Of a stretch of 64,000 nt of DNA, positions 1 to 11,965 are shown piece after piece. Every line of letters begins with the position of its first letter. Positions within the stretch are counted from its first letter, which is position 1. The stretch is from Minisyncoccia bacterium (GTDB taxonomy: Bacteria; Patescibacteriota; Minisyncoccia; Phycocordibacterales; Phycocordibacteraceae): positions 13,530 through 77,529 of the forward strand of contig JBBQZW010000001.1 in the NCBI GenBank assembly GCA_038207395.1. The letters are read 5' to 3'. The notes below the pieces were generated by a model. The model ran no database searches. It saw nothing but the letters and a program-made list of their open reading frames with translations, and was not told the origin of the DNA. Made by a program: the position numbers and the translations under genes.

Positions 1-137
1 ACAAGGTAATCGTACTCTTCAGTCCCCACAGCATCGTGATATTCATTTTCAAATGAACTGTACCGCTCCACTTCTCTAAGCAGCTTTATTAACATCGCTC
101 GCATGCTTCTGTTGAAGTTATTACGACTTGTAGTCAT
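1..137 (-). CDS. partial hypothetical protein (N-terminal 45 aa visible; gene continues beyond window start)
   Basis: Minus-strand ATG at 137 gives MTTSRNNFNRSMRAMLIKLLREVERYSSFENEYHDAVGTEEYDYL... with no stop before position 1. It is co-directional with and directly downstream of the Xis-like gene. Confidence 0.3.
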   Translation of the reverse strand, partial: MTTSRNNFNRSMRAMLIKLLREVERYSSFENEYHDAVGTEEYDYL

Positions 138-141
138 AAGC

Positions 142-336
142 TTAGGTCTTGGCATTGTGAAGAAACCGGTTGAACTCTGTCTTATCAATGCGGAACTCCT
201 TTCCAATCTTGTAAGCCATGAGCTTACCCGCTTTGATATAGCGGTAGATGGTCATCACGTTTAACGAGAGAACGTCAGCAAGCTCGTTAGCTGTGTAATA
301 TTCTTTCGTTTTTGCCATATTAGGTACTTTTATCAT
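142..336 (-). CDS. small helix-turn-helix DNA-binding protein, MerR/excisionase (Xis)-like
   Basis: 64 aa. ...YTANELADVLSLNVMTIYRYIKAGKLMAYKIGKEFRI... is a typical excisionase/MerR-type HTH. Its stop overlaps the Rep-like gene by 4 nt. Confidence 0.55.
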   Translation of the reverse strand: MIKVPNMAKTKEYYTANELADVLSLNVMTIYRYIKAGKLMAYKIGKEFRIDKTEFNRFLHNAKT

Positions 337-1535
337 ACTTTACTTTTGTTTACATTCAACGAATAGGGTTGATAACTCGATAAGGTCTTCTTAACTTGCC
401 CATACCACTCGCGCGGTTGCATCTTATGTAGGTCAGACGCTATCTCGCGCAGGTCTCCAGAGTGTCGATACCAGCTTCTGTCGTCAGTACGCTTATCTAG
501 TAGAGACCTTAGCTCACGGAGCCCGTTCTCATCCCGAGCTAGCAATAAGAGGCCAGTAAGGTAGATAGCCGTCTTTCCTTTTGCGCTTTTACGCGCAACG
601 AGAATGCGTCTGAGCAAGTCCTTTGGTGTATAGGCGTGTGAGAAAAGTGGAATGCTATAGCCAGCTATCATTGTTTCCCAGTAGTGGTTAACCACCTTCT
701 TGCTTTTCGCTTTTGAGAACACTTGCCGGAAAGTAGGATTTTCTTCAAAGCCAAGCTGTTTGAAGAGAGTGTTCAACCTTCTTTTTTGGCTTAATCGAAC
801 TTCTAGCCGTAGGATTTCCTGTTCTTTCTTCAGCTCCTTAAACAAGCTCATTTGGTGCTGGGTCTGGTCTTTATCTATGGCTCGTTTCTTTCCTTTTGCG
901 AGGTCAGCTACCTTGTCATAGATAACGAATGAATGGGCTACGGAGTAGAGATATAAACTCTGTCCGTCATTCATGAAGCGAGCACGAGCAAGGTCGAAAC
1001 GCTTATTGAGATTGACCTTGCCCAGCTCGGTTATTACGTACTGTGCTGAATAACCGTCGGCTAACTCGATATTCTTTGAATAGTGAACCGCACTGACAGG
1101 AGCGTTCCTTAGCACGTCGAGCGGTATTACAACTCCCATCATACGCAGTCGCTCATCCAGTACTTCTACAACACGGTCAAAGTTGCTATCGCGCAGCTCC
1201 TCGAGATTATTCTTATAGAGAAGCTTAGGAACAGAGAACTCGATTTTGATGCTTGATTGCCAGGCAAGCTTTCCTTCTGCTCGACGAATGCCAGTAAGAC
1301 GTGGAAAGTACATGCCCTTGTCGAGGTCTTTGCTCGACGGGTTCTTTACGTACTTATCATAGGTTTTGGTACGCGCCTGCAGGTTCCACCGGTCAACTCC
1401 ATAGCCCGTCATATCAAGCATCATGGCCTTATCTCGTGGAAGAGTAAGTATCACGGTATCAATCATGACTTTCTTTTGATGCATCCTCATACCGCTCCGG
1501 CTCAAGTCGCAAGTCGATTTTATAGAGCAGGTCAA
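333..1535 (-). CDS. putative replication initiation protein (Rep_trans/RstA-like rolling-circle initiator) of a mobile element
   Basis: 400 aa. N-terminal MIDTVILTLP resembles the conserved start of Rep_trans initiators (IDWLSFT.P). Basic C-terminus. Paired with the Xis-like HTH gene. Family assignment from memory only. Confidence 0.4.
   Translation of the reverse strand: MTCSIKSTCDLSRSGMRMHQKKVMIDTVILTLPRDKAMMLDMTGYGVDRWNLQARTKTYDKYVKNPSSKDLDKGMYFPRLTGIRRAEGKLAWQSSIKIEFSVPKLLYKNNLEELRDSNFDRVVEVLDERLRMMGVVIPLDVLRNAPVSAVHYSKNIELADGYSAQYVITELGKVNLNKRFDLARARFMNDGQSLYLYSVAHSFVIYDKVADLAKGKKRAIDKDQTQHQMSLFKELKKEQEILRLEVRLSQKRRLNTLFKQLGFEENPTFRQVFSKAKSKKVVNHYWETMIAGYSIPLFSHAYTPKDLLRRILVARKSAKGKTAIYLTGLLLLARDENGLRELRSLLDKRTDDRSWYRHSGDLREIASDLHKMQPREWYGQVKKTLSSYQPYSLNVNKSKV
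337..357 (-). promoter_or_regulatory. conserved leader motif copy 1 (minus strand ATGTAAACAAAAGTAAAGT immediately 5' of ATG)
   Basis: 18/19 nt identical to the motif at 2429..2450. Both sit directly upstream of minus-strand start codons. Confidence 0.5.
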
Positions 1536-1596
1536 AGAACCCTACGAAGTTAGTTCGTGCTTCGAAGTCGTCAAATATCTGTTCTACTAATGTAGT

Positions 1597-1630
1597 TTGC
1601 TCTTCCACGAGCAAACATTAGCCAGAAAGG
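1597..1630. promoter_or_regulatory. imperfect inverted repeat upstream of the Rep-like gene (possible operator or origin element)
   Basis: ctaatgtagtttgctc / gagcaaacattag arms separated by ttccac, about 60 nt upstream of the Rep-like start. Confidence 0.3.
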
Positions 1631-1675
1631 ATGGACAGGGATAAGAAACTTCTGCAGACAGATGAAAAGAACTGC

Positions 1676-2428
1676 CTACACTTCTTTTCGCTTCTGCTTT
1701 TCCAGAGAGATGATTTTGGAAATATGCCCGTAATCAATAACGGCTTCAGAGCCAAACTTATCAGCAATGGCTTCCATTATTTTCCTGCGCGGCAGGTTCC
1801 GGTTCTCATATATAAAGTCATTACGCTCCTGAACCTTAGGGTTTTTCTTTTTAACCTTTCCAATCTTCTGTCCCGTAGCATCCTTTAAATAGTGCTCTTG
1901 CATCTGCTTGATAAATACATCGTGCTTCTCTATGAAGTCGATTATGTCCCTCTGGGTTGCCTGAGGGCTTATGCGAATGGCTAACGGATAGAAGCGGTTA
2001 TCTGCTTCTTGTATTTCTTTACTAAACGGGTCTTCACCTTCGCTCTGCAGGTCTACTAGCAGACATAAGTCAGCTCCATGCATTGCTTCAAGGGGCTCAT
2101 TGTAGAACAGCACAGATTGGATGGGGTCAGACCAATAAACGAAATGTAGGCCATAGTCGGCACACATTTTTTCAACATCTTTCCATAACTCTCTATTTGT
2201 ATCGCTGTGGCTATGTACCCACTCCCTAGGCGGCACCGTCCTATTATCCACTTGAGGAAAGCCGTTTACAGGTATCTCATACTTCTTTCTAAGTTCTAGT
2301 ACCCTTTCTTGAAAACGCGTCGTTCTAACTACTTCTTTAGCGTAGTTTTCAATCTTTACCCGTCCTTGGCTGTTCCAAGATTTCTCGAAAGCAAGTTGAG
2401 CGCTCGTTGGGATTTCATCCTCGTACAT
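1676..2428 (-). CDS. hypothetical protein (mobile-element associated)
   Basis: 250-aa ORF with no recognisable domain. Carries the same conserved leader motif as the Xis-like gene. Confidence 0.45.
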   Translation of the reverse strand: MYEDEIPTSAQLAFEKSWNSQGRVKIENYAKEVVRTTRFQERVLELRKKYEIPVNGFPQVDNRTVPPREWVHSHSDTNRELWKDVEKMCADYGLHFVYWSDPIQSVLFYNEPLEAMHGADLCLLVDLQSEGEDPFSKEIQEADNRFYPLAIRISPQATQRDIIDFIEKHDVFIKQMQEHYLKDATGQKIGKVKKKNPKVQERNDFIYENRNLPRRKIMEAIADKFGSEAVIDYGHISKIISLEKQKRKEV

Positions 2429-2450
2429 TACTTTACTTTAGTTTACATAT
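2429..2450 (-). promoter_or_regulatory. conserved leader motif copy 2 (minus strand ATGTAAACTAAAGTAAAGTA immediately 5' of ATG)
   Basis: Near-identical to 337..357. Confidence 0.5.
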
Positions 2451-2563
2451 CCCGTCAGTTCAATACGTGCTGGTATGCTTGACATTGGCTTATTCATATG
2501 TTATATGTATGTACAGGCACGAACCATAGGTTCGCTTCTTTCCAGATTTCTTAGGAGGCACAA

Positions 2564-2908
2564 ATGAGCAGTTTTCAGATTACTGGCATTCTTTTGTCAG
2601 TCCATGCTATCGAGGTCGAACATACTGACCTCGGTAAGCGTGAGACCGGAAGGCGCTGCTTTGCGGACAGCCGCTTCTTCTCGAAGCCGTTATTCGTTCC
2701 TCGCATCGGAGAACAGGTTTCTCTCAACTCAACTTCGGGAGTTATGGGTAGGGTTATCGACCTGTGGAGTACCATCACCACCCTGCCCATGCAGTCAGTC
2801 CAGCTCACTGTGGAGGTGAATGTCGGCGATGTCGATAAGCTTGTTTCCGCTAAGTGGAAGCGCACTTCCAAGAAGTTGCCGTCTAAGAAGACCCCTAGTT
2901 CCAACTAG
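2564..2908 (+). CDS. hypothetical protein
   Basis: 114 aa. Strong SD (ttaggaggcacaaATG). Chosen over the antisense ORF 2575..2904. Confidence 0.5.
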   Translation: MSSFQITGILLSVHAIEVEHTDLGKRETGRRCFADSRFFSKPLFVPRIGEQVSLNSTSGVMGRVIDLWSTITTLPMQSVQLTVEVNVGDVDKLVSAKWKRTSKKLPSKKTPSSN

Positions 2909-3014
2909 CTTCAAACCGAATTGGGAGCACGGTTAATTGCTCCCCTCTATTGAGCCCGCAAGTTCACTTGTTGTCTCATCGAGTACAGTTCTTCACACCA
3001 ACCAGGAGGGATTT

Positions 3015-3380
3015 ATGGCCTATCGCGACAACGTATCTGCTTTGGCAGCAAAGTTCGGCATCTCGAATGACACAGGTCTCCGCGAGGAAGACCTGAAAAT
3101 CGCCGAACTGCGCTTCATCGACGACCAAGGAAACGTCCTTACGACAATCCAAGCAACGCCCATGAATAAGGGAGGGCGGCTTTTCTTTCAAGCTCTCGGT
3201 ACTATCACTCTCGAGGACGAAGACCGTATGGCTTCGTTGCACGTCAACGAACGCTTGCGCTCGGAAGCAGCTCGGCACTTTGCTGAGCTATGGGAACCCA
3301 ATCCCGAACCTGGCAAGCGCGTATTGCTTGATGCCATTCGCGACCCTCGGCATGCCGAAGTTGAGATTGGCTGGAAATAG
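3015..3380 (+). CDS. hypothetical protein
   Basis: Internal ATG (MAYRDNV...) preceded by caGGAGGGatttATG. Followed by an intrinsic terminator. Confidence 0.5.
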   Translation: MAYRDNVSALAAKFGISNDTGLREEDLKIAELRFIDDQGNVLTTIQATPMNKGGRLFFQALGTITLEDEDRMASLHVNERLRSEAARHFAELWEPNPEPGKRVLLDAIRDPRHAEVEIGWK

Positions 3381-3419
3381 CCAGTTTCGGCGAACCGATA
3401 CTACATAAAAACTCGCACC

Positions 3420-3458
3420 GAACCCCAGCGAGTATAAATAAGGGGTTCTTTTCTTTTT
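3420..3458 (+). terminator. rho-independent terminator
   Basis: gaacccc ... ggggttc stem followed by ttttcttttt. Confidence 0.6.
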
Positions 3459-3530
3459 ATGCAAAAGTGAATATTCCTAATTCTCTCTCAATTTGTGCCC
3501 AGTTCAGAGTTCTAAACTTGTCCAGCATGG

Positions 3531-3583
3531 GGAGCCAAATAAAAACACCAGAGATATATGCTCTGGTGTTTTTATTTGGCTCC
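3531..3583. repeat. perfect 23-bp-arm palindrome (ggagccaaataaaaacaccagag-atatatg-ctctggtgtttttatttggctcc)
   Basis: The arms are exact reverse complements, read directly from the sequence. The loop contains a TATAT element. Confidence 0.9.
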
Positions 3584-3632
3584 GCTCACACAGACATTTT
3601 GCGCCTGTATTGGATTTGATATAGTTATAGTA

Positions 3633-3812
3633 ATGAACATATTTAACTTCGGCGAAAAGAAAGAACCTAAAAAGAACTCAGGAGAAACGTCAGACATGAC
3701 TCCGTACGGCACTTCAGGTACTCATTTGGTAGATGACTCAACGGACTCAGCAAGCTGTGACTCTTCAAGTGATGGAGGTTCTTCTGACGGAGGTTGTGGG
3801 GGCGGTGAGTAA
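3633..3812 (+). CDS. candidate small peptide with a Cys/Ser/Gly/Asp-rich C-terminus (possibly 38 aa from ATG 3696)
   Basis: MNIFNFGEKKEPKKNSGETSDMTPYGTSGTHLVDDSTDSASCDSSSDGGSSDGGCGGGE. The internal ATG at 3696 is preceded by AGGAGA. Low complexity, so it may not be expressed. Confidence 0.25.
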   Translation: MNIFNFGEKKEPKKNSGETSDMTPYGTSGTHLVDDSTDSASCDSSSDGGSSDGGCGGGE

Positions 3813-3854: not shown

Positions 3855-4700
3855 ATGACCGTACGTCGTTTACTTCGTATTAGCCGCCCACGCTTTTGGC
3901 TGTATGAGCTTGGTACGTTTGTGGTGGGGGTAGTTGCTGCATACGCGCACGGCGCACCTGCTTCCAGCATACTTTCCATCAGTACCGCGGCATTCTTTGC
4001 GTATTTTCTCTTTCCGGCAAATCTCTACATTTACGGAATTAATGATATCTACGATTACGAAACTGATCGCTTGAATCCAAAAAAGACTGCATATGAGGCT
4101 CTTGTAATGCCCGATGAGCACGCCACGCTGTGGCGTGCCATTCTAATCACCACTATTCCGTTCGCCGCTTTCCTCATGGGCGCTCCAATTTCTGCGTGGA
4201 TTGCATTCAGTGTATTTTTGTTCTTCGCGTGTTTCTATTCTGCTCCCCCGATACGGGCAAAAATACGGCCTGGGCTTGATAGCCTTTTTAGTGCTGGACA
4301 TTATGTTGCCACGGGAGTCTTTGGATATCTTCTTGTCGGAGCCACGAGTCTCAGCTATCTTCCTGTAGCCGCAGCAATGTTCTGGGCTATTGCCATGCAT
4401 GCATATTCCGCAGTTCCTGATATTCAGGCAGATAGTGAAGGAGGGCTTGCAACTATTGCCACTAGCTTAGGCAAACAAGGAACTATTCTTGTGTGTCTTG
4501 TCCTGTATACACTTGCCAGTGTCATGGCTCTTCCGTATCTTGGCGTATCCGTCCTACTCCTAGGTGCCGTGTACACCGCGCTTATGGTACTTTCGCTTTT
4601 TGCTCGTAGTGAAAAGACCTTGTTCTCCATATACAAGGTCTTTCCAACAGTAAACGCCTTAGCAGGAATGGCGATATTTTTCCTTACGCTGTATCACTAG
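3855..4700 (+). CDS. UbiA-family prenyltransferase (integral membrane), candidate lycopene elongase/carotenoid prenyltransferase
   Basis: 281 aa, multi-TM. NDIYDYETD (NDxxDxxxD) and DIQAD (DxxxD) motifs. Divergent from the crtIBE genes. Confidence 0.8.
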   Translation: MTVRRLLRISRPRFWLYELGTFVVGVVAAYAHGAPASSILSISTAAFFAYFLFPANLYIYGINDIYDYETDRLNPKKTAYEALVMPDEHATLWRAILITTIPFAAFLMGAPISAWIAFSVFLFFACFYSAPPIRAKIRPGLDSLFSAGHYVATGVFGYLLVGATSLSYLPVAAAMFWAIAMHAYSAVPDIQADSEGGLATIATSLGKQGTILVCLVLYTLASVMALPYLGVSVLLLGAVYTALMVLSLFARSEKTLFSIYKVFPTVNALAGMAIFFLTLYH

Positions 4701-6201
4701 GAATCATTTCAGTGAGTGGTTCTGGCGTTTTAATTCCCATGATGCGCTTGTACGCGAGTTCGGCCGAAATAAGACAGATCGGCATACCAATGCCGGGATT
4801 TGTACCGGCTCCTACGTAGTAGAGATTCGAGACCTTCTTACTTACGTTATTTGGGCGGAAGGTCGCCGTTTGCCCTAAGGTGTGAGCAAGCCCGAGCGCA
4901 CTTCCTCCAAGTGAGTGGTAGTCACGGGTAAAGTCGTCAGGAGTATACGTGCGAATATATTCAATACGCGAACGAAGATTTGGGATTTTCATTTCCACCT
5001 CAAGCATTTCAAGTATCTTCGTTTGGTATGCTTCAAGCATCTCTGCAGAATATTCCACACCAGCTCCTATCGGTACTAAGACAAAGAGATTTTCTTTTCC
5101 AGCAGGTGCAACGCTTTTATCGGTCTTAGAGGGACAGCACACGTAAAATGAAGGAGCATTCGGCAGAGTTGGTGACTCAAATATTTCATCAAAGTTTTTC
5201 TTCCAGTCTTTTGCGAAGAATAGGTTGTGGTGCACCAGTGAGTCTACTGACCCATCAACCCCTAAATACATAATGAATGCAGAAGGTGCGAGTGTTCGGT
5301 TCTTCCAATACGACGCCTTAAAACTTTGATCCTTCGAACTAAGAAGTGCTGTTTCAGTGTGCGCAATGTCAGCGTTCGAGATAATCAAGTCTGCGGTAAG
5401 TTTCTCCCCATTCGTGAGTATCACACCCGTTGCAACTCTTCCCTTTGTTTCTATATGGGAGACTTCAGTATCAGTGCGGATCTCTGCGCCATACTTTCTT
5501 GCAATGCCTCCAAGCACTTCTATGAGACGATATATACCTCCTTCTGGGTAGTACACACCCATATTGAAATCAATATGACTCATTATGTTGTAGAGCGCAG
5601 GAGTCTTATAGGGAGAACTTCCGAGAAACACGAGCTGATACTGCATTATCTTCTGCACCATGTCTGATTTGAAGAATTTCTTTACGTATGTGTCCATGGT
5701 TGAAAATACGGAAAGTTTACGTCCCTCCACCATGGTTCTTTTATTAAAGAAGTCCATGAATGAGTCATAGTTCTTGTACATAAATTCGTTCGTCGCAACA
5801 TCATACTGATATGCGGATTGTGCAACGTATTCCTTGAGCTTTGTTCCACTTCCCGGCTCAAGGGTTTCAAATAAAGCTGCTGCTTTTTCTATATCTGCTT
5901 CAACATCAATAGGTTCATCCTGGTCTTTGAAGTAGATACGGTAGGAAGGTGAAAGCTTTTGCAAATGTAAGTGTTCTTCAATTGGTTCACCAAGTAACGT
6001 AAAAAAGTGCTGGAACACGTCTGGCATTAAGTACCACGAAGGCCCCATATCAAAGCGGTATCCTTCTGCTTCAAACACGTTTGCACGGCCTCCAATGTTC
6101 TTGTTCTTTTCTAGTACCGTTACGTGATAACCTTGTTTTGCCAGCAAACAGGCGGTACCAAGTCCCCCAATACCTGAACCGATGATAAGTGCTTTTTTCA
6201 T
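4684..6201 (-). CDS. crtI: phytoene desaturase family (CrtI-like) FAD-dependent oxidoreductase
   Basis: 505 aa. N-terminal GSGIGGLGTACLLAKQG dinucleotide-binding motif. CrtI/CrtN family similarity along its length. 3' end overlaps the ubiA-like gene by 17 nt (convergent). Confidence 0.85.
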   Translation of the reverse strand: MKKALIIGSGIGGLGTACLLAKQGYHVTVLEKNKNIGGRANVFEAEGYRFDMGPSWYLMPDVFQHFFTLLGEPIEEHLHLQKLSPSYRIYFKDQDEPIDVEADIEKAAALFETLEPGSGTKLKEYVAQSAYQYDVATNEFMYKNYDSFMDFFNKRTMVEGRKLSVFSTMDTYVKKFFKSDMVQKIMQYQLVFLGSSPYKTPALYNIMSHIDFNMGVYYPEGGIYRLIEVLGGIARKYGAEIRTDTEVSHIETKGRVATGVILTNGEKLTADLIISNADIAHTETALLSSKDQSFKASYWKNRTLAPSAFIMYLGVDGSVDSLVHHNLFFAKDWKKNFDEIFESPTLPNAPSFYVCCPSKTDKSVAPAGKENLFVLVPIGAGVEYSAEMLEAYQTKILEMLEVEMKIPNLRSRIEYIRTYTPDDFTRDYHSLGGSALGLAHTLGQTATFRPNNVSKKVSNLYYVGAGTNPGIGMPICLISAELAYKRIMGIKTPEPLTEMIPSDTA

Positions 6202-7061
6202 GACGAGAATATAATAGGAATAGCGTAACGAAGTTTTTGTAAAGTGGTTGTGCTGCGGCGCGCGCTAAATACATCGTAATCTGCTTCACTGATGCGGTCG
6301 AGTATTTTGCTATATAGCACTCGCGAAAGGAGAACTGCTTTTCGCCCTGGAACAGAAAGCATGGGAATACCCTTATCGGCACGCTCATAGAGCACACGTG
6401 CGCGATCAGCTTCGAATTTTAGAAGTTCCTTTAATTCAGGAGTTAGTACCGCACCTTTAACCATATCCTCAGTAACACCAAAGCGATCCATATCTTCTTT
6501 AGGGAGATAGATTCTCTCACGCTGTTCATAGTCTTCTCGAATATCACGAAGGAAGTTAGTAAGTTGCATTGCGTATCCTAAATCCGCAGCGTAGGCATAC
6601 GCATCATGGTCACTAGTTCCGATAATGTGTACAAGCATAATACCTATTACTGCAGCAGAGCCGTGCATATACTCTTTTAAGTCTTCGTACGTCTCGTAGC
6701 GCGTTACATAGGTATCGCGCAACATAGCTTCGAGGAAGGTATCCATCAAAATGGATGGGACTGAATAGGTGACAAAAGCCCATGCAGCAGCTGCCAAAAT
6801 TGGATCTTCGTGGGTTCCGGTTTGAAGCGCCTCATGCCATTCGTGTTGGAGCCTTTCGAGCCGTTCTTTTGCTTCTTCGGGGGTTTTTGATTCAGTATCA
6901 ACTATTTCATCGGCCATACGCACGAATCCATAGAGAGAATAGACGGCATCTTGAATATCTTTTGGAAACAGTTTGGTAGCGTAATAGTAGTTTGTTCCGT
7001 AGTCTTTTGTAAGTTTTTTCGCCTGGCGTATTGCCTCTACAGGCTTCGAAAATGAGCGCAT
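6198..7061 (-). CDS. crtB: phytoene synthase (squalene/phytoene synthase family)
   Basis: 287 aa. Two DxxxD motifs (ADEIVD, DIRED). YAT..LFP N-terminal signature. 4-nt overlap with crtI. Confidence 0.85.
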   Translation of the reverse strand: MRSFSKPVEAIRQAKKLTKDYGTNYYYATKLFPKDIQDAVYSLYGFVRMADEIVDTESKTPEEAKERLERLQHEWHEALQTGTHEDPILAAAAWAFVTYSVPSILMDTFLEAMLRDTYVTRYETYEDLKEYMHGSAAVIGIMLVHIIGTSDHDAYAYAADLGYAMQLTNFLRDIREDYEQRERIYLPKEDMDRFGVTEDMVKGAVLTPELKELLKFEADRARVLYERADKGIPMLSVPGRKAVLLSRVLYSKILDRISEADYDVFSARRSTTTLQKLRYAIPIIFSS

Positions 7062-7062
7062 A

Positions 7063-8115
7063 CTATGTTGTTCGTCCAGCCATACGACTAAGAAGCTCGC
7101 TCCACGCTCTCGTTAGTGATGGTGAAAAATGTTGACTCTCGAGTGCGGAGGCAGCTTCTTGGAGTTCCTTAGCTATGCGTGATCGTCCATAGCTGATTGC
7201 CCCTGTGCGTTCAAAGATTTCTTTTACTAGTCCTGTGTTTTGTTCGCCGCATTCTTTTCCAAAGCAACGAAGGAGTGCTTGAATATCCTCTGCGCTTCCG
7301 TGTGTCATAACGTAATTCGTAAAAATAGTGTGCTGCCCTTCGGAAACATCCTTCAGAGATTTCTTACCCGTTACGCTTTCGCTCCCTACAATATCTAAAA
7401 GATCGTCCTGTAGCTGAAATGCCATACCCAGAGCGGACCCAAAGACCGTACTCCACTCGTCATGCTGGCCTGACATTCCTGCAAGGGCCGCACCAAAACG
7501 AAGAGGATAAATAAAAGTGTATTGCGCAGTTTTAAGGAGTGTTTTTTTCTCAATTTCCTCGAGCGTTGTTTTTTCTTGGCCTGCAATTTTAACATCTAGC
7601 ATTTGACCAATAACGACGGCATATACCATTGCGTCAAACACACTCATGCACTTCTTTGCTACTGAGGTAGAGAGAGTTTCTGTAAGAATTTCTTTTGACC
7701 AATTAAAAACAAGATCTCCAACAAGTATTGCTTGGCTTTGTGCAGAAGCAGTATTGTTTGTCCCTTCGAGTGAGCGAGCGTATTCGTGAAGTGTGGGAAT
7801 ACCATGACGAACTGCTGCCTTGTCGATAATATCGTCATGGATAAGCGCAAACACATGAAAGAGTTCAATAGCAACAAGTATCTCTAAGACGCCTTCGTCT
7901 TCACCTCCTGCAGTCTTGTACATAAGGTAACTGACATAGGGACGGACGCGCTTGCCCCCGGCAAGCGCTATATCTTTAACATAGGCAAGAAGATACCCTA
8001 TATAGAGATCGTTCGAGAATTCAGGCGCTTTTTGAATACGGCTTGAAATTGCCTTTTCCATCAACGGATCAAATACCTGCTTAAAGGTAGTTAGGTCTAG
8101 AATGGCGGGAGTCAT
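7063..8115 (-). CDS. crtE: polyprenyl (geranylgeranyl) diphosphate synthase
   Basis: 350 aa. FARM motif LIHDDIIDK and SARM motif QLQDDLLD. Confidence 0.85.
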   Translation of the reverse strand: MTPAILDLTTFKQVFDPLMEKAISSRIQKAPEFSNDLYIGYLLAYVKDIALAGGKRVRPYVSYLMYKTAGGEDEGVLEILVAIELFHVFALIHDDIIDKAAVRHGIPTLHEYARSLEGTNNTASAQSQAILVGDLVFNWSKEILTETLSTSVAKKCMSVFDAMVYAVVIGQMLDVKIAGQEKTTLEEIEKKTLLKTAQYTFIYPLRFGAALAGMSGQHDEWSTVFGSALGMAFQLQDDLLDIVGSESVTGKKSLKDVSEGQHTIFTNYVMTHGSAEDIQALLRCFGKECGEQNTGLVKEIFERTGAISYGRSRIAKELQEAASALESQHFSPSLTRAWSELLSRMAGRTT

Positions 8116-10448: not shown

Positions 10449-11287
10449 CCGAGATTCTGCATCTTATTCCAGTGTACTGGCATATGGATTGGCTCCCTGC
10501 CTTATGGTTCTTTACTATTGCTCTTGAGATTGGACTCTATCTGATGCTTGATGGTGCAGATCTGGGTATTGGCATTCTCTCACTATTTTCTAAGAACGAG
10601 CATACTCGAGGGTACGTTATGCAAGTGATTGGTCCTATATGGGACGCAAACGAAACCTGGTTAGTGGTTGCGGCTGGAACACTCTTTGGTGCATTCCCCC
10701 TTGCTTACGGCATCATCCTAAGCGCACTCTACATTCCAGTGATGATCCTCATCTTTGGTCTTATTCTCCGAGCAGTATCCTTCGAGTTCTATCATTTCGC
10801 CTCACGCAAGCGTATCTGGGGACGATTCTTTGGCATTGGGAGTCTGATGGCTGCTGTTGGACAGGGACTACTTGCAGGCGGACTTGTGTCTGGCATTGCT
10901 GTGTCTAATGGTGAGTTTGTAGGGGGACCTCTTAGTTTTGCAACTCCTATCGCTTTCGTGATAACGGCTGGTATTGTTATTGCGTACCTGTGTACGGGTA
11001 AAGCATACCTCGTTCGCCGTCATGAATCATCAGGATCCTTAAAGCGCCTTATGTACCCTTCTGCTCTGGCCGTGCTGGCGGTTGCCTTTGGAACAGTGAC
11101 TATTGTTTTGCTTCCAAACCTCGTGCCGCCGAGCATAACTATCTATACAGCAGCGGCCTCACATAAGACATTGAAGTTTATGCTCTACGGAATAGGGCCA
11201 CTAATTCCAATTATCTTTGCGTATAATCTGTATTTGTATAGAGTGTTCCGCGAAGAGCGTGAGGAGAGCCGTGACGACACGTATTAA
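10445..11287 (+). CDS. cydB: cytochrome bd ubiquinol oxidase subunit II
   Basis: 280 aa, multi-TM. 4-nt overlap with cydA. CydB-like start (DLGIGILS..., WDANETW). Confidence 0.85.
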   Translation: MTEILHLIPVYWHMDWLPALWFFTIALEIGLYLMLDGADLGIGILSLFSKNEHTRGYVMQVIGPIWDANETWLVVAAGTLFGAFPLAYGIILSALYIPVMILIFGLILRAVSFEFYHFASRKRIWGRFFGIGSLMAAVGQGLLAGGLVSGIAVSNGEFVGGPLSFATPIAFVITAGIVIAYLCTGKAYLVRRHESSGSLKRLMYPSALAVLAVAFGTVTIVLLPNLVPPSITIYTAAASHKTLKFMLYGIGPLIPIIFAYNLYLYRVFREEREESRDDTY

Positions 11288-11344
11288 GCATTTGGTCCAC
11301 TGAGGTATACTTGTGTACGGAAACCTTCATACGGGATATATACA

Positions 11345-11965
11345 ATGCAGAAACCAGGTATTACTTCACTTACGGTCTACACCGGACCCATGTTTTCTTC
11401 CAAATCAGGGAGTCTGATTATGGGTATTGAACGCGCCGGCTATGCCCATTTACGTATCAAAGTCGGGAAATCTGGCATGGATACGCGTACGAATGGAGAA
11501 GTTGCCACGCGGCGTATTAAAGACGGCACCCCTTCAGTGCTTTCAAGCATAGAGGCAACGCCAATCTCTTCGCGTGAGGAATTCCTTGCATTTACTGCAG
11601 GGGATGACTATGACGTACTTGCCTTCGATGAGGTACAGTTTTTTACTCTTGACTCACCGATGCAAGACACGCTTGGTTGGTTTGGCAGGGAAATTCGTGA
11701 TCTTCTTCACCGTAGGAAAGATACATCGCTTCAGATCCTGATTGCAGGACTCGACACTGATGCAACTGATCTTCCCTTTGGGGTTATGCCAGGACTCATG
11801 GCCATTGCTGACCGGGTGGAGAAACTCACGGCAGTATGTATGGTGTGTGGTTCATTCTTTGCAACGAAGTCTCAGAGACTAAGTTCAGACAAGGGTACTG
11901 TGTCAGTCGGAGATGCGGGCATTTACGAAGCGCGATGCCGCTTGTGCTTTACTACGGGAACATAA
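11345..11965 (+). CDS. tdk: thymidine kinase
   Basis: 206 aa. VYTGPMFSSKSGSLI P-loop. DEVQFF. C-terminal CxxC...CxxC zinc ribbon. Confidence 0.85.
   Translation: MQKPGITSLTVYTGPMFSSKSGSLIMGIERAGYAHLRIKVGKSGMDTRTNGEVATRRIKDGTPSVLSSIEATPISSREEFLAFTAGDDYDVLAFDEVQFFTLDSPMQDTLGWFGREIRDLLHRRKDTSLQILIAGLDTDATDLPFGVMPGLMAIADRVEKLTAVCMVCGSFFATKSQRLSSDKGTVSVGDAGIYEARCRLCFTTGT

Follow-up and report, generated by a model that had tools for sequence, protein, structure and literature searches.

We found that the beginning of the 64,000-nucleotide stretch of the Minisyncoccia bacterium contig analysed here (the window) very probably holds the attL-proximal part of an integrated, site-specific mobile element, which runs from position 1 to about position 3537 and belongs to a family widespread in Patescibacteria. 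It is most likely an integrative element that would replicate as a rolling circle. The source organism belongs to a group of ultra-small bacteria, and the Patescibacteria (CPR) account for a large share of bacterial diversity; to our knowledge, their mobile DNA is almost unknown and there are few genetic tools for them. Searches of the literature turned up no account of this element family. As a more tentative proposal, to which we give somewhat less than even confidence, the family is phylum-wide and undescribed, with a large serine recombinase (LSR) that targets tRNA 3' ends and whose gene spans attP, a recombinase tail that is swapped for tRNA codons, a G2P-like initiator that replicates the circle, and a swappable slot for restriction-modification genes.

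The features of the element and its host flank in the window are:

1-104, minus strand: 5' portion of the first cargo gene, truncated at the window edge; likely start M12 (ATG 104), with the reading frame open from 137
142-336, minus strand: excisionase-family winged-HTH (Xis-like) gene, a 64-aa ORF; HTH_17 E 1.3e-12, TIGR01764 E 4.7e-13
332-359, minus strand: promoter-like site P2; -35 TTGAAT (359->354), -10 TATGAT (337->332)
336-354, minus strand: motif copy 2, TGTAAACAAAAGTAAAGTA, in the P2 spacer; it also encodes the Rep C-terminus (..NKSKV and stop)
333-1466, minus strand: Rep, 377 aa, distant member of the G2P (Phage_CRI)/Rep_trans group
1459-1614, minus strand: conserved small ORF (cluster c4), 51 aa, missed in the first-pass annotation
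1676-2428, minus strand: 250-aa orphan, first gene of the Rep operon (cluster c6), with a confident predicted fold that is unmatched
2429-2463, minus strand: promoter-like site P1 as read from the sequence; -35 TTGAAC (2463->2458), 17-nt spacer, -10 TAAAGT (2440->2435)
2429-2447, minus strand: motif copy 1, TGTAAACTAAAGTAAAGTA, within P1
2564-2908, plus strand: accessory gene of the left arm, 114 aa, located between P1 and the end of the element; its AGGAGG ribosome-binding site is strong
3015-3380, plus strand: left-arm accessory gene, 121 aa from an ATG with an AGGAGG site; reading frame open from 2937
3457-3537, minus strand: element left end (element arm of attL), encoding WLPMLDKFRTLNWAQIERELGIFTFA and a stop, an alternative C-terminal tail
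3531-3537, plus strand: crossover core GGAGCCA, the target tRNA 3' end (TGGCTCC on the element strand)
3538-3583, plus strand: host side of attL, the intrinsic-terminator hairpin of the displaced tRNA gene

All the ORFs that the first-pass annotation described in positions 1-2500 are present on the minus strand, the partial ORF at the left edge included, and this region is an operon of the 250-aa orphan, the 51-aa ORF, a Rep-like gene, an excisionase-family HTH gene and the start of a cargo gene. The reading of the block as the edge of a mobile element is borne out by comparison with related loci and by an attL-type junction in the window. The range 1-2500 holds for the block itself, but the element reaches about 3537 and takes in two further genes, and the junction core at 3531-3537, beyond that range, contradicts the earlier statement that no att site lies in the window. 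Since this left junction is in the window, the element spans 1 to about 3537 and continues leftwards, and the cargo, the LSR and the tRNA are expected to the left of position 1. At least 959 Rep homologues among the candidates scored, and 1182 clusters of Rep relatives at 50% identity, indicate that the block is more than a product of chance.

Comparison of the window with 80 related loci from Patescibacteria genomes, taken at the species level, revealed a shared order of first gene, small ORF, Rep, Xis-like HTH, variable restriction-modification cargo and LSR. An LSR of at least 400 aa on the same strand lies downstream of Rep and Xis in 67 of the 80. The LSR cluster representatives carry the Pfam domains Resolvase, Recombinase and Zn_ribbon_recom, and the cargo, classified likewise by Pfam matches of cluster representatives, comprises N6_N4 methylase with ResIII, C5 methylase, D12 methylase with AlwI, N6_N4 methylase with MvaI/BcnI, PLD-SNF2 with Eco57I, and GmrSD-HNH. 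The nearest full relative (L082), with a Rep identity of 81%, is a complete element including the LSR; another complete element of about 7 kb (L062) consists of an orphan gene, a small ORF, Rep, HTH, a methylase, a restriction enzyme and the LSR, and the complete elements examined measure 6-16 kb. Judged from these loci, the family order is an LSR-tail left end, optional opposite-strand accessory genes, P1, a first gene (c6, c3 or c22), an ORF of about 50 aa, Rep, P2, HTH, cargo and LSR.

The partial cargo ORF matches no Pfam family; over 33 aa it shares 52% identity with the N-terminal end of a 157-aa protein (L057:12600-13073), which sits between Xis and the serine recombinase, with the LSR directly after it. 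The 64-aa protein was correctly taken for an Xis-type HTH: both of its family matches exceed their cutoffs (Pfam HTH_17, PF12728, 48.2 bits against 27; TIGR01764, 49.3 bits against 28.8), and PHROG excisionase families match it as well. The promoter-like TTGAAT-16-TATGAT at 359->332 favours M7 (ATG 318), so that the real product probably has 58 aa. Candidate roles for this protein are those of recombination directionality factor and/or regulator, the support for the former role being its position downstream of Rep, between Rep and the cargo and LSR, in 77 of the 80 loci. The gene is not essential to the core, since four loci (L040, L059, L065 and L074) have no HTH gene between Rep and LSR.

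The stop of the 51-aa ORF overlaps the Rep start (ATGATTGA), so the two are probably translationally coupled. The ORF occupies the same position in 21 loci by tblastn, and its cluster has 36 members, the representative of which matches no Pfam family. The 250-aa hypothetical is a genuine ORF (1676-2428) with 62 homologues, all unnamed or named hypothetical; it matches no Pfam, PHROG or NCBIfam family and no PDB sequence with E < 0.27, and a Foldseek search of its model (pLDDT 89.9) against PDB gave no match. On our reading of the model only, it may have an HTH-like three-helix unit at its C-terminus. Other elements have the unrelated first genes c3 or c22 in place of c6. The 114-aa and 121-aa accessory genes gave no homologues, and the left arm of many relatives holds variable genes on the opposite strand.

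The largest protein in the block had been described as a 400-aa protein with a Rep_trans-like N-terminus. An ORF at 333-1535 exists, but most aligned homologues share the start MIDTVILTLP (ATG 1466), so Rep has 377 aa. It is a distant relative of rolling-circle initiators, yet it stays below the gathering threshold of Rep_trans (PF02486; 18.8 bits, E 0.0013, against 29.6 bits), as do all of the 14 family members, out of 38, that match Rep_trans (best E 5e-4). For Phage_CRI (PF05144), the window Rep has no match at E <= 1, and it is under every Pfam threshold, while three of the 38 family members match Phage_CRI. A homologue that is 61% identical over 100% of the length (P0022) passes Phage_CRI with 28.6 against 21.7 bits (HMM positions 1-217 of 232), and so does a distant relative that is followed by an LSR (L087, 22.7 bits). 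The structure model (pLDDT 87) has a G2P-like fold: in a Foldseek search of BFVD, whose targets are predicted and not solved structures, five models match it (probability 1.0, TM 0.43-0.54, E 1e-8 to 1e-6), among them one that carries the annotation "Replication-associated protein G2P [Inoviridae]". Against PDB, Foldseek gave no RepD/RepDE-like match, and there was no detectable similarity to solved Rep structures. The above-threshold homologue and the fold similarity make Phage_CRI/G2P the better-supported affiliation of Rep, as compared with Rep_trans.

In the alignment of the Rep family, S78/K81/L82, Y183-D184-K185 (YDK) and R220/E222/R224/L225 (R-x-E-x-R-L) are invariant. The motif order IEFsxPKL / vIYDK / LRxEvRL is that of pT181 RepC (RIEFNPNKL / RIYNK / WRVEIEL), for which hhalign aligned the first motif alone, with a probability of 0.35. 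Y183 in the invariant YDK is the candidate catalytic tyrosine. The model also shows a further, helical domain of some 140 aa at the C-terminus. For the element, no origin of replication was identified.

These affinities bear on two other explanations. The same element might carry a Rep that is chiefly a MobT-like relaxase, which would make it an integrative mobilizable element (IME) with oriT processing and helper-dependent transfer, replication being secondary. Rep_trans-related relaxases or replication initiators occur in Tn916, ICEBs1 and many streptococcal IMEs, some of them with serine recombinases (PMC5704250), and the architecture of Rep, HTH, cargo and recombinase is IME-like. However, the complete elements examined (6-16 kb) showed no gene for a coupling protein or a mating pore, Rep is nearer to phage G2P than to MobT, and an unsystematic look at the 10-kb flanks noticed neither an oriT nor a helper. 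We also know of no reported conjugation system in Patescibacteria, which counts against a MobT-like relaxase, and we consider this explanation unlikely.

An integrated inovirus-like ssDNA prophage or satellite with a G2P-type initiator would account for the viral G2P models among the best fold matches of Rep, for Phage_CRI as the Pfam family reached by its relatives, and for the inovirus-like size of the smallest relatives (6-8 kb). But neither a morphogenesis ATPase (Zot/pI) nor coat genes were identified in complete relatives such as L062, and all genes of the relatives of about 7 kb are accounted for; tblastn of Rep against 50,697 phage records gave no match, and only 2 relatives occur in 2.9 million IMG/VR contigs. 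The first-pass annotation had offered an ssDNA-phage-like element or an integrated rolling-circle plasmid. The former lacks support, with complete relatives that carry restriction-modification genes and no identified morphogenesis genes, and we regard it as very improbable. The latter comes nearer to the integrative element that we favour, with its proposed rolling-circle mechanism; tblastn of Rep against 72,556 plasmid records also gave no match.

Both operons are preceded by a 19-nt element-specific motif, of which the 64 kb contain 2 copies against 0.08 expected by chance, and most related loci have it at the same two positions, within P1 and P2. At P1, the start codon at 2428 directly follows the promoter-like region, which implies a leaderless mRNA.

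The order of the block is conserved across many genomes, as it would be in an ordinary, non-mobile chromosomal operon of Patescibacteria. This conservation, together with a Rep_trans score below threshold, had been named in advance as grounds for giving up the mobile-element reading. Both were found, yet what is conserved is a mobile cassette: it occurs at four tRNA species and in tandem arrays, and its cargo is swapped, so synteny does not refute mobility. The linkage to a serine recombinase and the differing flanking genes also speak against a non-mobile operon, to which we give next to no credence. A G+C shift, a further suggested sign, was unremarkable and not significant (46.0% vs 47.0%). 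By its tetranucleotide composition the block does stand out, since no more than 0.9% of windows of the same size lie equally far from the norm, and this too speaks against a non-mobile operon.

The site specificity of the favoured mobile element emerges from the tRNA genes of its relatives. A tRNA gene adjoins the LSR in 37 loci (Asn 29, Gln 5, Asp 2, His 1), and in 35 of these the tRNA 3' end overlaps the LSR stop by 7-64 nt. The core was obtained by comparing attL, attR and attP-like joints in at least 37 loci, and the junctions share TGGCTCC; attL lies in the window and attR at the tRNA 3' end in 37 relatives, with a short shared core. In the tandem L030 and the L080 contig, junction identity begins where the junction motif begins, at TGGCT in L080. 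The hairpin on the host side of attL is included in a perfect 23-nt inverted repeat (I1, 3531-3553 / 3561-3583), and similar hairpins adjoin the core in three relatives (L042, L044 and L070).

The other element end is conserved as TGGCTCC..TGGAC..GTTCAGAAC and encodes an alternative C-terminal tail of the LSR, which places attP inside the LSR gene. In the window, this end (3537->3457) matches left ends and LSR tails elsewhere (tblastn E 2e-8), and the DNA motif matches too. Across left ends, the median open length is 34 codons in this frame but 15 and 10 in the two others, and the codon positions rank 3 > 1 > 2 in variability; we therefore read the tail as coding. In tandem arrays, the longer LSRs end in this same peptide. 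With its reading frame crossing attP, the recombinase is 26-40 codons longer in the excised or tandem form. The c0 ORFs upstream of elements had been considered as recombinase remnants and were rejected, since they are left-end tail sequence.

For this genome, the exact host-flank pattern of an empty site was absent from the metagenome collection. Relatives of the flank reached at most 55% identity in UbiA and had no tRNA nearby or upstream, so that no sufficiently close relative was found, and no circular junction was recovered. The four tRNA targets, differing flanks and tandem arrays give indirect support for presence/absence polymorphism. None of 14 short contigs had an exact terminal overlap indicating circularity; L080 alone repeats the first 126 element bases at its end, which denotes a tandem or a circle and is no proof of an episome.

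As had been stated, no recombinase was found in the window. Its predicted place to the left of position 1 agrees with the side on which the LSR lies in 67 of the 80 relatives, a position that we infer from these and that is unseen in this genome. With its recombinase, its tRNA and most of its cargo outside the window, this element could be truncated. A decayed remnant, of which the left module alone survives after deletion or rearrangement of the recombinase side, would fit the missing recombinase and the broken LSR genes of some relatives (e.g., L021, L023, L070). However, everything visible is intact (five genes, the two promoter motifs and the tail ORF of the left end), the start of the cargo gene matches the gene that precedes the LSR in L057, and the window may merely begin at an assembly breakpoint, as in L002, L006, L041, L064 and L085. 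We give decay little weight and prefer an element that extends beyond the window.

In the mechanism that we propose, the recombinase would integrate and excise the element at the tRNA 3' end, and the HTH protein may act as directionality factor and/or regulator, in the latter case binding the GTAAA(C/G)-N4-GTAAAG motif in P1 and P2. In the excised circle, the WLPMLDKFRTLNWAQIERELGIFTFA tail would join the serine recombinase in frame; the predicted attP junction is ..AAC TGGCTCC CCATGCTGGACAAG.. and the predicted attB junction is tRNA..GGAGCCA AATAAAAACACCAGAG. The G2P/Rep_trans-like Rep would then nick an origin via Y183 and maintain the circle by rolling-circle replication, and the restriction-modification cargo would benefit or addict the host. 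In this genome, the remainder of the cargo gene would sit to the left of position 1, together with the recombinase and the tRNA.

These results correct the annotation of the window: the element occupies 1-3537, the attL core 3531-3537, and the recombinase side is outside. With this family one can test whether a serine integrase targets tRNA genes and alters its own C-terminal end when it integrates. If this is true, a conserved tail of 26-40 residues is replaced by a few tRNA-encoded codons on integration, and the swap would be a built-in switch that marks the integrated or excised state of the recombinase. The family would also be a concrete vehicle for the movement of restriction-modification genes among ultra-small genomes, and would explain a recurrent assembly breakpoint in CPR genomes from metagenomes. 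Its compact native cassette combines two conserved promoters and a candidate replicon with a recombinase that has a defined attP and attB at a conserved tRNA, and could lead to integration or shuttle vectors for these organisms.

Among known systems, the IMEs of Firmicutes with Rep_trans/MobT and a serine or tyrosine recombinase (PMC5704250, PMC5357655, PMC7563843) are likewise small and integrated, with a rolling-circle-type initiator or relaxase, short attL/attR cores, a recombinase and accessory cargo, restriction-modification genes among it. According to a review (PMC5704250), IMEs with a serine recombinase insert within genes, whereas here the target is a tRNA 3' end and attP lies within the recombinase gene; Rep is below the Rep_trans threshold and nearer to G2P, the family lives in Patescibacteria, and a conjugative helper system is not evident. 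In pSAM2-type actinomycete elements, rep, xis and int form one operon, integration is into a tRNA gene, and rolling-circle replication follows excision (PMC2440964). The rep-xis-int gene order and the tRNA-gene integration resemble ours, but pSAM2 has a tyrosine integrase, a pC194-type RepSA and an FtsK-like Tra, whereas our family has an LSR and a G2P/Rep_trans-like Rep, with no Tra-like gene of the FtsK type in the complete relatives scanned; it does not belong with these actinomycete elements.

For the initiator, filamentous-phage G2P (PF05144) resembles Rep in predicted fold and through the 61%-identical homologue above threshold, and of the pT181-type Rep_trans initiators (PF02486), for which Rep is sub-threshold, RepC has three comparable motifs in the same order. 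Unlike both types, the window Rep has no PF05144 match and has the additional C-terminal domain. For the recombinase, the closest precedents are phage Mx8 IntP and the fusellovirus SSV integrase, whose genes, as cited in PMC4383910, span attP, so that integration alters the C-terminal coding region; these are tyrosine recombinases, whereas the family described here has a large serine recombinase. According to the Islander paper (PMC4383910), no serine-family integrase was known in 2015 to have tRNA genes as its target, and an LSR at tRNA 3' ends, if true, would thus enter a target class that was then deemed exclusive to tyrosine integrases.

A block of minus-strand genes occupies the left edge of the window, as the first-pass annotation had reported, and was recovered from both the ORF list and the raw sequence, with the following members:

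2428→1676, minus strand: 250-aa ORF (ORF list and raw sequence)
1614→1459, minus strand: 51-aa ORF (ORF list and raw sequence)
1535→333, minus strand, start ATG 1466: long ORF, Rep (ORF list and homologues)
336→142, minus strand: 64-aa ORF, Xis-like HTH (ORF list and family profiles)
running off the window at position 1, minus strand: partial ORF (ORF list and raw sequence)

The ORFs listed in that annotation are all present, and the 51-aa ORF, whose stop overlaps the Rep start (ATGATTGA), was omitted from it. The long protein does carry the N-terminus MIDTVILTLP, while its length is 377 aa from ATG 1466 rather than 400 aa; we consider this the true start because homologues begin there. The 64-aa protein is indeed an excisionase-type HTH protein, scoring 48.2 bits against Pfam HTH_17 (cutoff 27) and 49.3 bits against TIGR01764 (cutoff 28.8), and it also matches PHROG excisionase families. 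The 250-aa protein has no family match in the Pfam, PHROG or NCBIfam libraries. As for composition, the block does not stand out in G+C content (46.0% vs 47.0%), but its tetranucleotide composition is outlying, at a distance equalled by only 0.9% of same-size windows.

Rep belongs to a large family, with at least 959 homologues among the candidates scored and 1182 clusters (50% identity; E ≤ 1e-3). All homologues are unnamed or “hypothetical”, and those with a named source are from Patescibacteria (Kaiserbacteria, Zambryskibacteria, Paceibacteria, and others). The earlier likening to Rep_trans was not upheld at the level of membership: the window protein scores 18.8 bits against the PF02486 profile, below the gathering score of 29.6, and is outside PF02486 by that family's own test. 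Sub-threshold Rep_trans matches are found in 14 of 38 aligned members, and three of the 38 match Phage_CRI. One homologue, P0022, which is 61% identical to the window Rep over its full length, exceeds the curated threshold of Phage_CRI (28.6 vs 21.7 bits) with a match covering HMM positions 1–217 of 232, and a 313-aa distant relative (29% identity) on an IMG/VR contig (L087, 132–2897; IMGVR_UViG_3300006147_000596) passes it as well, with 22.7 bits.

An AlphaFold model built from the family alignment (pLDDT 87, pTM 0.82) gave five Foldseek matches of probability 1.0 among predicted viral proteins, one of them annotated as inovirus G2P. Foldseek against solved structures returned nothing convincing, and a profile search against PDB sequences returned no match. 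With pT181 RepC, hhalign aligned only IKIEFSVPKL to MRIEFNPNKL, at low probability. Visual inspection places the invariant family residues in three motifs, IEFsxPKL, vIYDK, and LRxEvRL, whose RepC counterparts are RIEFNPNKL, RIYNK, and WRVEIEL in the same order; because of this parallel, we infer Y183 as a candidate catalytic tyrosine. From the profile matches and the predicted fold, we conclude that Rep probably belongs, as a divergent representative, to the G2P/Rep_trans group of rolling-circle initiators. A tblastn search with Rep gave no match in either the phage or the plasmid collection.

For comparison, one genome per species was scanned, which yielded 80 related loci with 10-kb flanks; ORFs were called, proteins were clustered, window proteins were mapped on, and each locus was oriented with Rep on the plus strand. 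This clustering and mapping revealed one gene order that recurs across the 80 loci:

Position 1: opposite-strand accessory genes, optional (DUF3800, DUF2779, orphans)
Position 2: first gene, belonging to c6 (including the window 250-aa protein), c3 or c22, which are unrelated clusters
Position 3: small ORF, ~50 aa
Position 4: Rep
Position 5: one or two small ORFs, in some loci
Position 6: Xis-like HTH, in 77 of 80 loci
Position 7: cargo, one to three genes
Position 8: large serine recombinase (LSR), ~500 aa, with Resolvase, Recombinase, and Zn_ribbon_recom domains

An LSR of at least 400 aa lies on the same strand downstream of Rep in 67 of the 80 loci, and the remainder are mostly truncated contigs or broken LSR genes. 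The identifiable cargo is restriction–modification: an N6/N4 methylase with a ResIII helicase-nuclease or with MvaI/BcnI, a C5 methylase, a D12 methylase with AlwI, a PLD-SNF2 protein with an Eco57I-type methylase, or GmrSD-HNH. Among complete relatives the closest is L082 (Rep 81% identical), which has every part of this arrangement, including a type III system and the LSR; hpf and def-fmt come next. On the IMG/VR contig L087, a 530-aa serine recombinase directly follows the Rep relative with no HTH gene between them, and the same minimal pair is seen in two other loci (L059 and L065). In L031, L038, L050, and L064 (about 11100–11680 in each) and about eight further loci, an ORF between Rep and Xis resembles an internal piece of the LSR, either residues ~117–272 (157–185 aa, 42–65% identity) or only ~117–155 (50 aa), and may be either a duplicate that has decayed or a truncated regulator.

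The gene content of the relatives also bears on what kind of element this is. A MobT-type relaxase role is possible for Rep, although no genes for transfer were seen. An inovirus-like prophage, close to the ssDNA-phage option of the first-pass annotation, is unlikely, since the relatives have no morphogenesis genes, Rep is without a match in the phage collection, and the IMG/VR search recovered only two Rep relatives.

Related contigs commonly end ~60–300 nt past Xis (L002, L006, L041, L064, L085) or begin just before Rep, and window position 1 lies 141 nt beyond the Xis stop. This fits a cargo slot that differs among co-assembled strains and seems to be a recurrent assembly breakpoint; such a break would be expected if the conserved flanks enclosed different restriction–modification cassettes in co-occurring strains. 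From its M12 onwards, the partial ORF at the window edge aligns with the N-terminal end of a 157-aa L057 protein positioned between Xis and the LSR. Judged by that homologue, ~120 further codons of the cargo gene would lie left of position 1, where a same-strand LSR of ~500 aa and a convergent tRNA (probably Asn) with its 3′ end GGAGCCA overlapping the LSR stop are also predicted. No LSR homologue is present in the 64-kb window, and the element in this genome might be a truncated remnant.

The ends of the element were located by comparing loci. In 37 loci ARAGORN calls a tRNA gene beside the LSR gene, on the other strand, and in 35 of these it overlaps the LSR stop codon by 7–64 nt. Across the 37, the target is tRNA-Asn(GTT) 29 times, tRNA-Gln five times, tRNA-Asp twice, and tRNA-His once. 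The right-end joint reads ..cctaac/TGGCTCCGCGGG.. (slash at the joint), with TGGCTCC complementary to GGAGCCA, the tRNA 3′ end. In most loci, the left end lies 1.2 to 9.5 kb upstream of Rep on the same strand, is preceded by a terminator-like hairpin, and reads TGGCTCC-N5-TGGAC-N3-TTCAGAAC-N4-AAyTGG. In the LSR frame it translates as WLPLVDxFRTxNWxxIxxELxFSG, which is the C-terminal extension of longer LSRs upstream of the second element in tandem arrays (e.g., 597 aa in L038 and 549 aa in L039). This tail frame has a median open length of 34 codons (range 26–40) vs 15 and 10 in the other frames, and its variability by codon position follows 3 > 1 > 2, so the tail appears to be coding. L030 is a tandem of two identical 6.4-kb elements; the LSR of its first copy is 519 aa long with the extension, and that of the last copy (494 aa) terminates within tRNA-Gln. 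In L080 the first 126 element bases recur after the LSR at the contig end, 100% identical, with identity starting exactly at TGGCT.

These comparisons therefore define both integrated ends (attL and attR) and a joint of attP type whose core is ~7 bp, and place attP, the site on the circle, inside the LSR gene. Judging from the sequences, the integrated LSR is shortened by tRNA sequence (..NWLRG, then stop), while the excised or tandem form would keep the tail. The predicted attP is the recombinase 3′ end ..AAC/TGGCTCC/CCATGCTGGACAAGTTTAGAAC, and the predicted attB, the empty target, is the tRNA ..GGAGCCA/AATAAAAACACCAGAGATATATGCTCTGGTG. A non-mobile operon is contradicted by these junctions.

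Past the target tRNA-Asn, the right flanks of L001, L009, L036, L045, L057, and L082 repeatedly carry the S30AE ribosome hibernation factor, with methionyl-tRNA formyltransferase and peptide deformylase also recurring, so the neighbourhood of the integration site is conserved across distant Patescibacteria. ARAGORN calls no tRNA at the right junction of L082 (13444–13530), where the tRNA-like sequence becomes abnormal past the anticodon-loop region; this target may be split, intron-containing or damaged.

The first-pass annotation saw no att site in the window, but the left-end sequence is present, with these features around it:

3537→3457: left-end sequence (tblastn E down to 2e-8; DNA motif match)
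3531–3537, plus strand: core GGAGCCA of the left-end sequence
2564–2908, plus strand: left-arm gene with a strong AGGAGG site
3015–3380, plus strand: left-arm gene with a strong AGGAGG site
3558–3812, plus strand: 84-aa ORF, first host gene past the junction; C-terminus rich in Gly/Ser/Cys/Asp

The left-end sequence reads TGG CTC CCC ATG CTG GAC AAG TTT AGA ACT CTG AAC TGG .. and encodes WLPMLDKFRTLNWAQIERELGIFTFA followed by a stop; the element therefore covers 1–3537 and continues past position 1. Directly beyond the core, a hairpin followed by a T-run forms part of a perfect inverted repeat of 23 nt (3531–3553 / 3561–3583; GGAGCCAAATAAAAACACCAGAG / CTCTGGTGTTTTTATTTGGCTCC), and we take this hairpin to be the displaced tRNA gene's terminator. 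As the left arm of the repeat begins exactly at the attL core, the terminator stem reaches into the tRNA's own 3′ end, whereas in related loci the hairpins adjoin the core without this extended pairing. Neither left-arm gene has homologues in the family libraries or the related loci.

Host DNA runs from ~3538. The 84-aa ORF scores 36.1 bits against a YxzE-like putative bacteriocin family, under the threshold of 40. A carotenoid-type cluster at 3855–8115 (UbiA prenyltransferase, CrtI-like amine oxidase, phytoene/squalene synthase, and polyprenyl synthetase) directly adjoins the element in this apparent Patescibacteria genome, and a CrtI homologue (54% identity) lies ~9 kb from the element of L071, an Uhrbacteria locus.

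A 19-nt motif, TGTAAAC-N-AAAGTAAAGTA, has exactly two copies in the 64-kb window (chance expectation 0.08):

2429–2447, minus strand: directly upstream of the first gene
336–354, minus strand: at the Rep end, upstream of Xis

Most related loci have it at the same two positions. The promoter-like site P1 consists of TTGAAC, 17 nt, TAAAGT, 6 nt, and ATG, a spacing that implies a leaderless transcript; P2, from a consensus scan, is TTGAAT, 16 nt, and TATGAT, and its position favours M7 as the Xis start. We interpret the motif as a putative promoter and operator for an element regulator, which may be the HTH protein or the product of the first gene, and it may take part in Rep recognition. No replication origin was recognised.

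Full-text literature searches found no description of this element family. A 2025 study of Patescibacteria genomic islands reported restriction–modification islands, with recombinases unmentioned. According to the 2015 Islander paper, no serine integrase was then known to use a tRNA gene as its target, and integrase genes that run across attP are those of the tyrosine enzymes from Mx8 and SSV (PMC4383910). What appears to be new is the Rep family, the tRNA-targeting serine recombinase, attP inside the recombinase gene, and the spread across Patescibacteria.

All functional statements on the element are computational; comparison among loci shows the architecture together with the tRNA target and core, the joints of tandem copies, and a reading frame that crosses attP. 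The LSR would integrate the circle at the tRNA 3′ end and excise it, with direction presumably biased by the LSR tail, the HTH protein or both. Rep would replicate the excised circle by a rolling-circle mechanism, and the restriction–modification cargo might serve as a selectable or addictive payload. Integrative elements with a rolling-circle initiator are already known as a kind: pSAM2 has rep, xis, and int in one operon with the same excise-then-replicate logic (PMC2440964), and Rep_trans-type proteins maintain the excised forms of Tn916 and ICEBs1 (PMC5704250).
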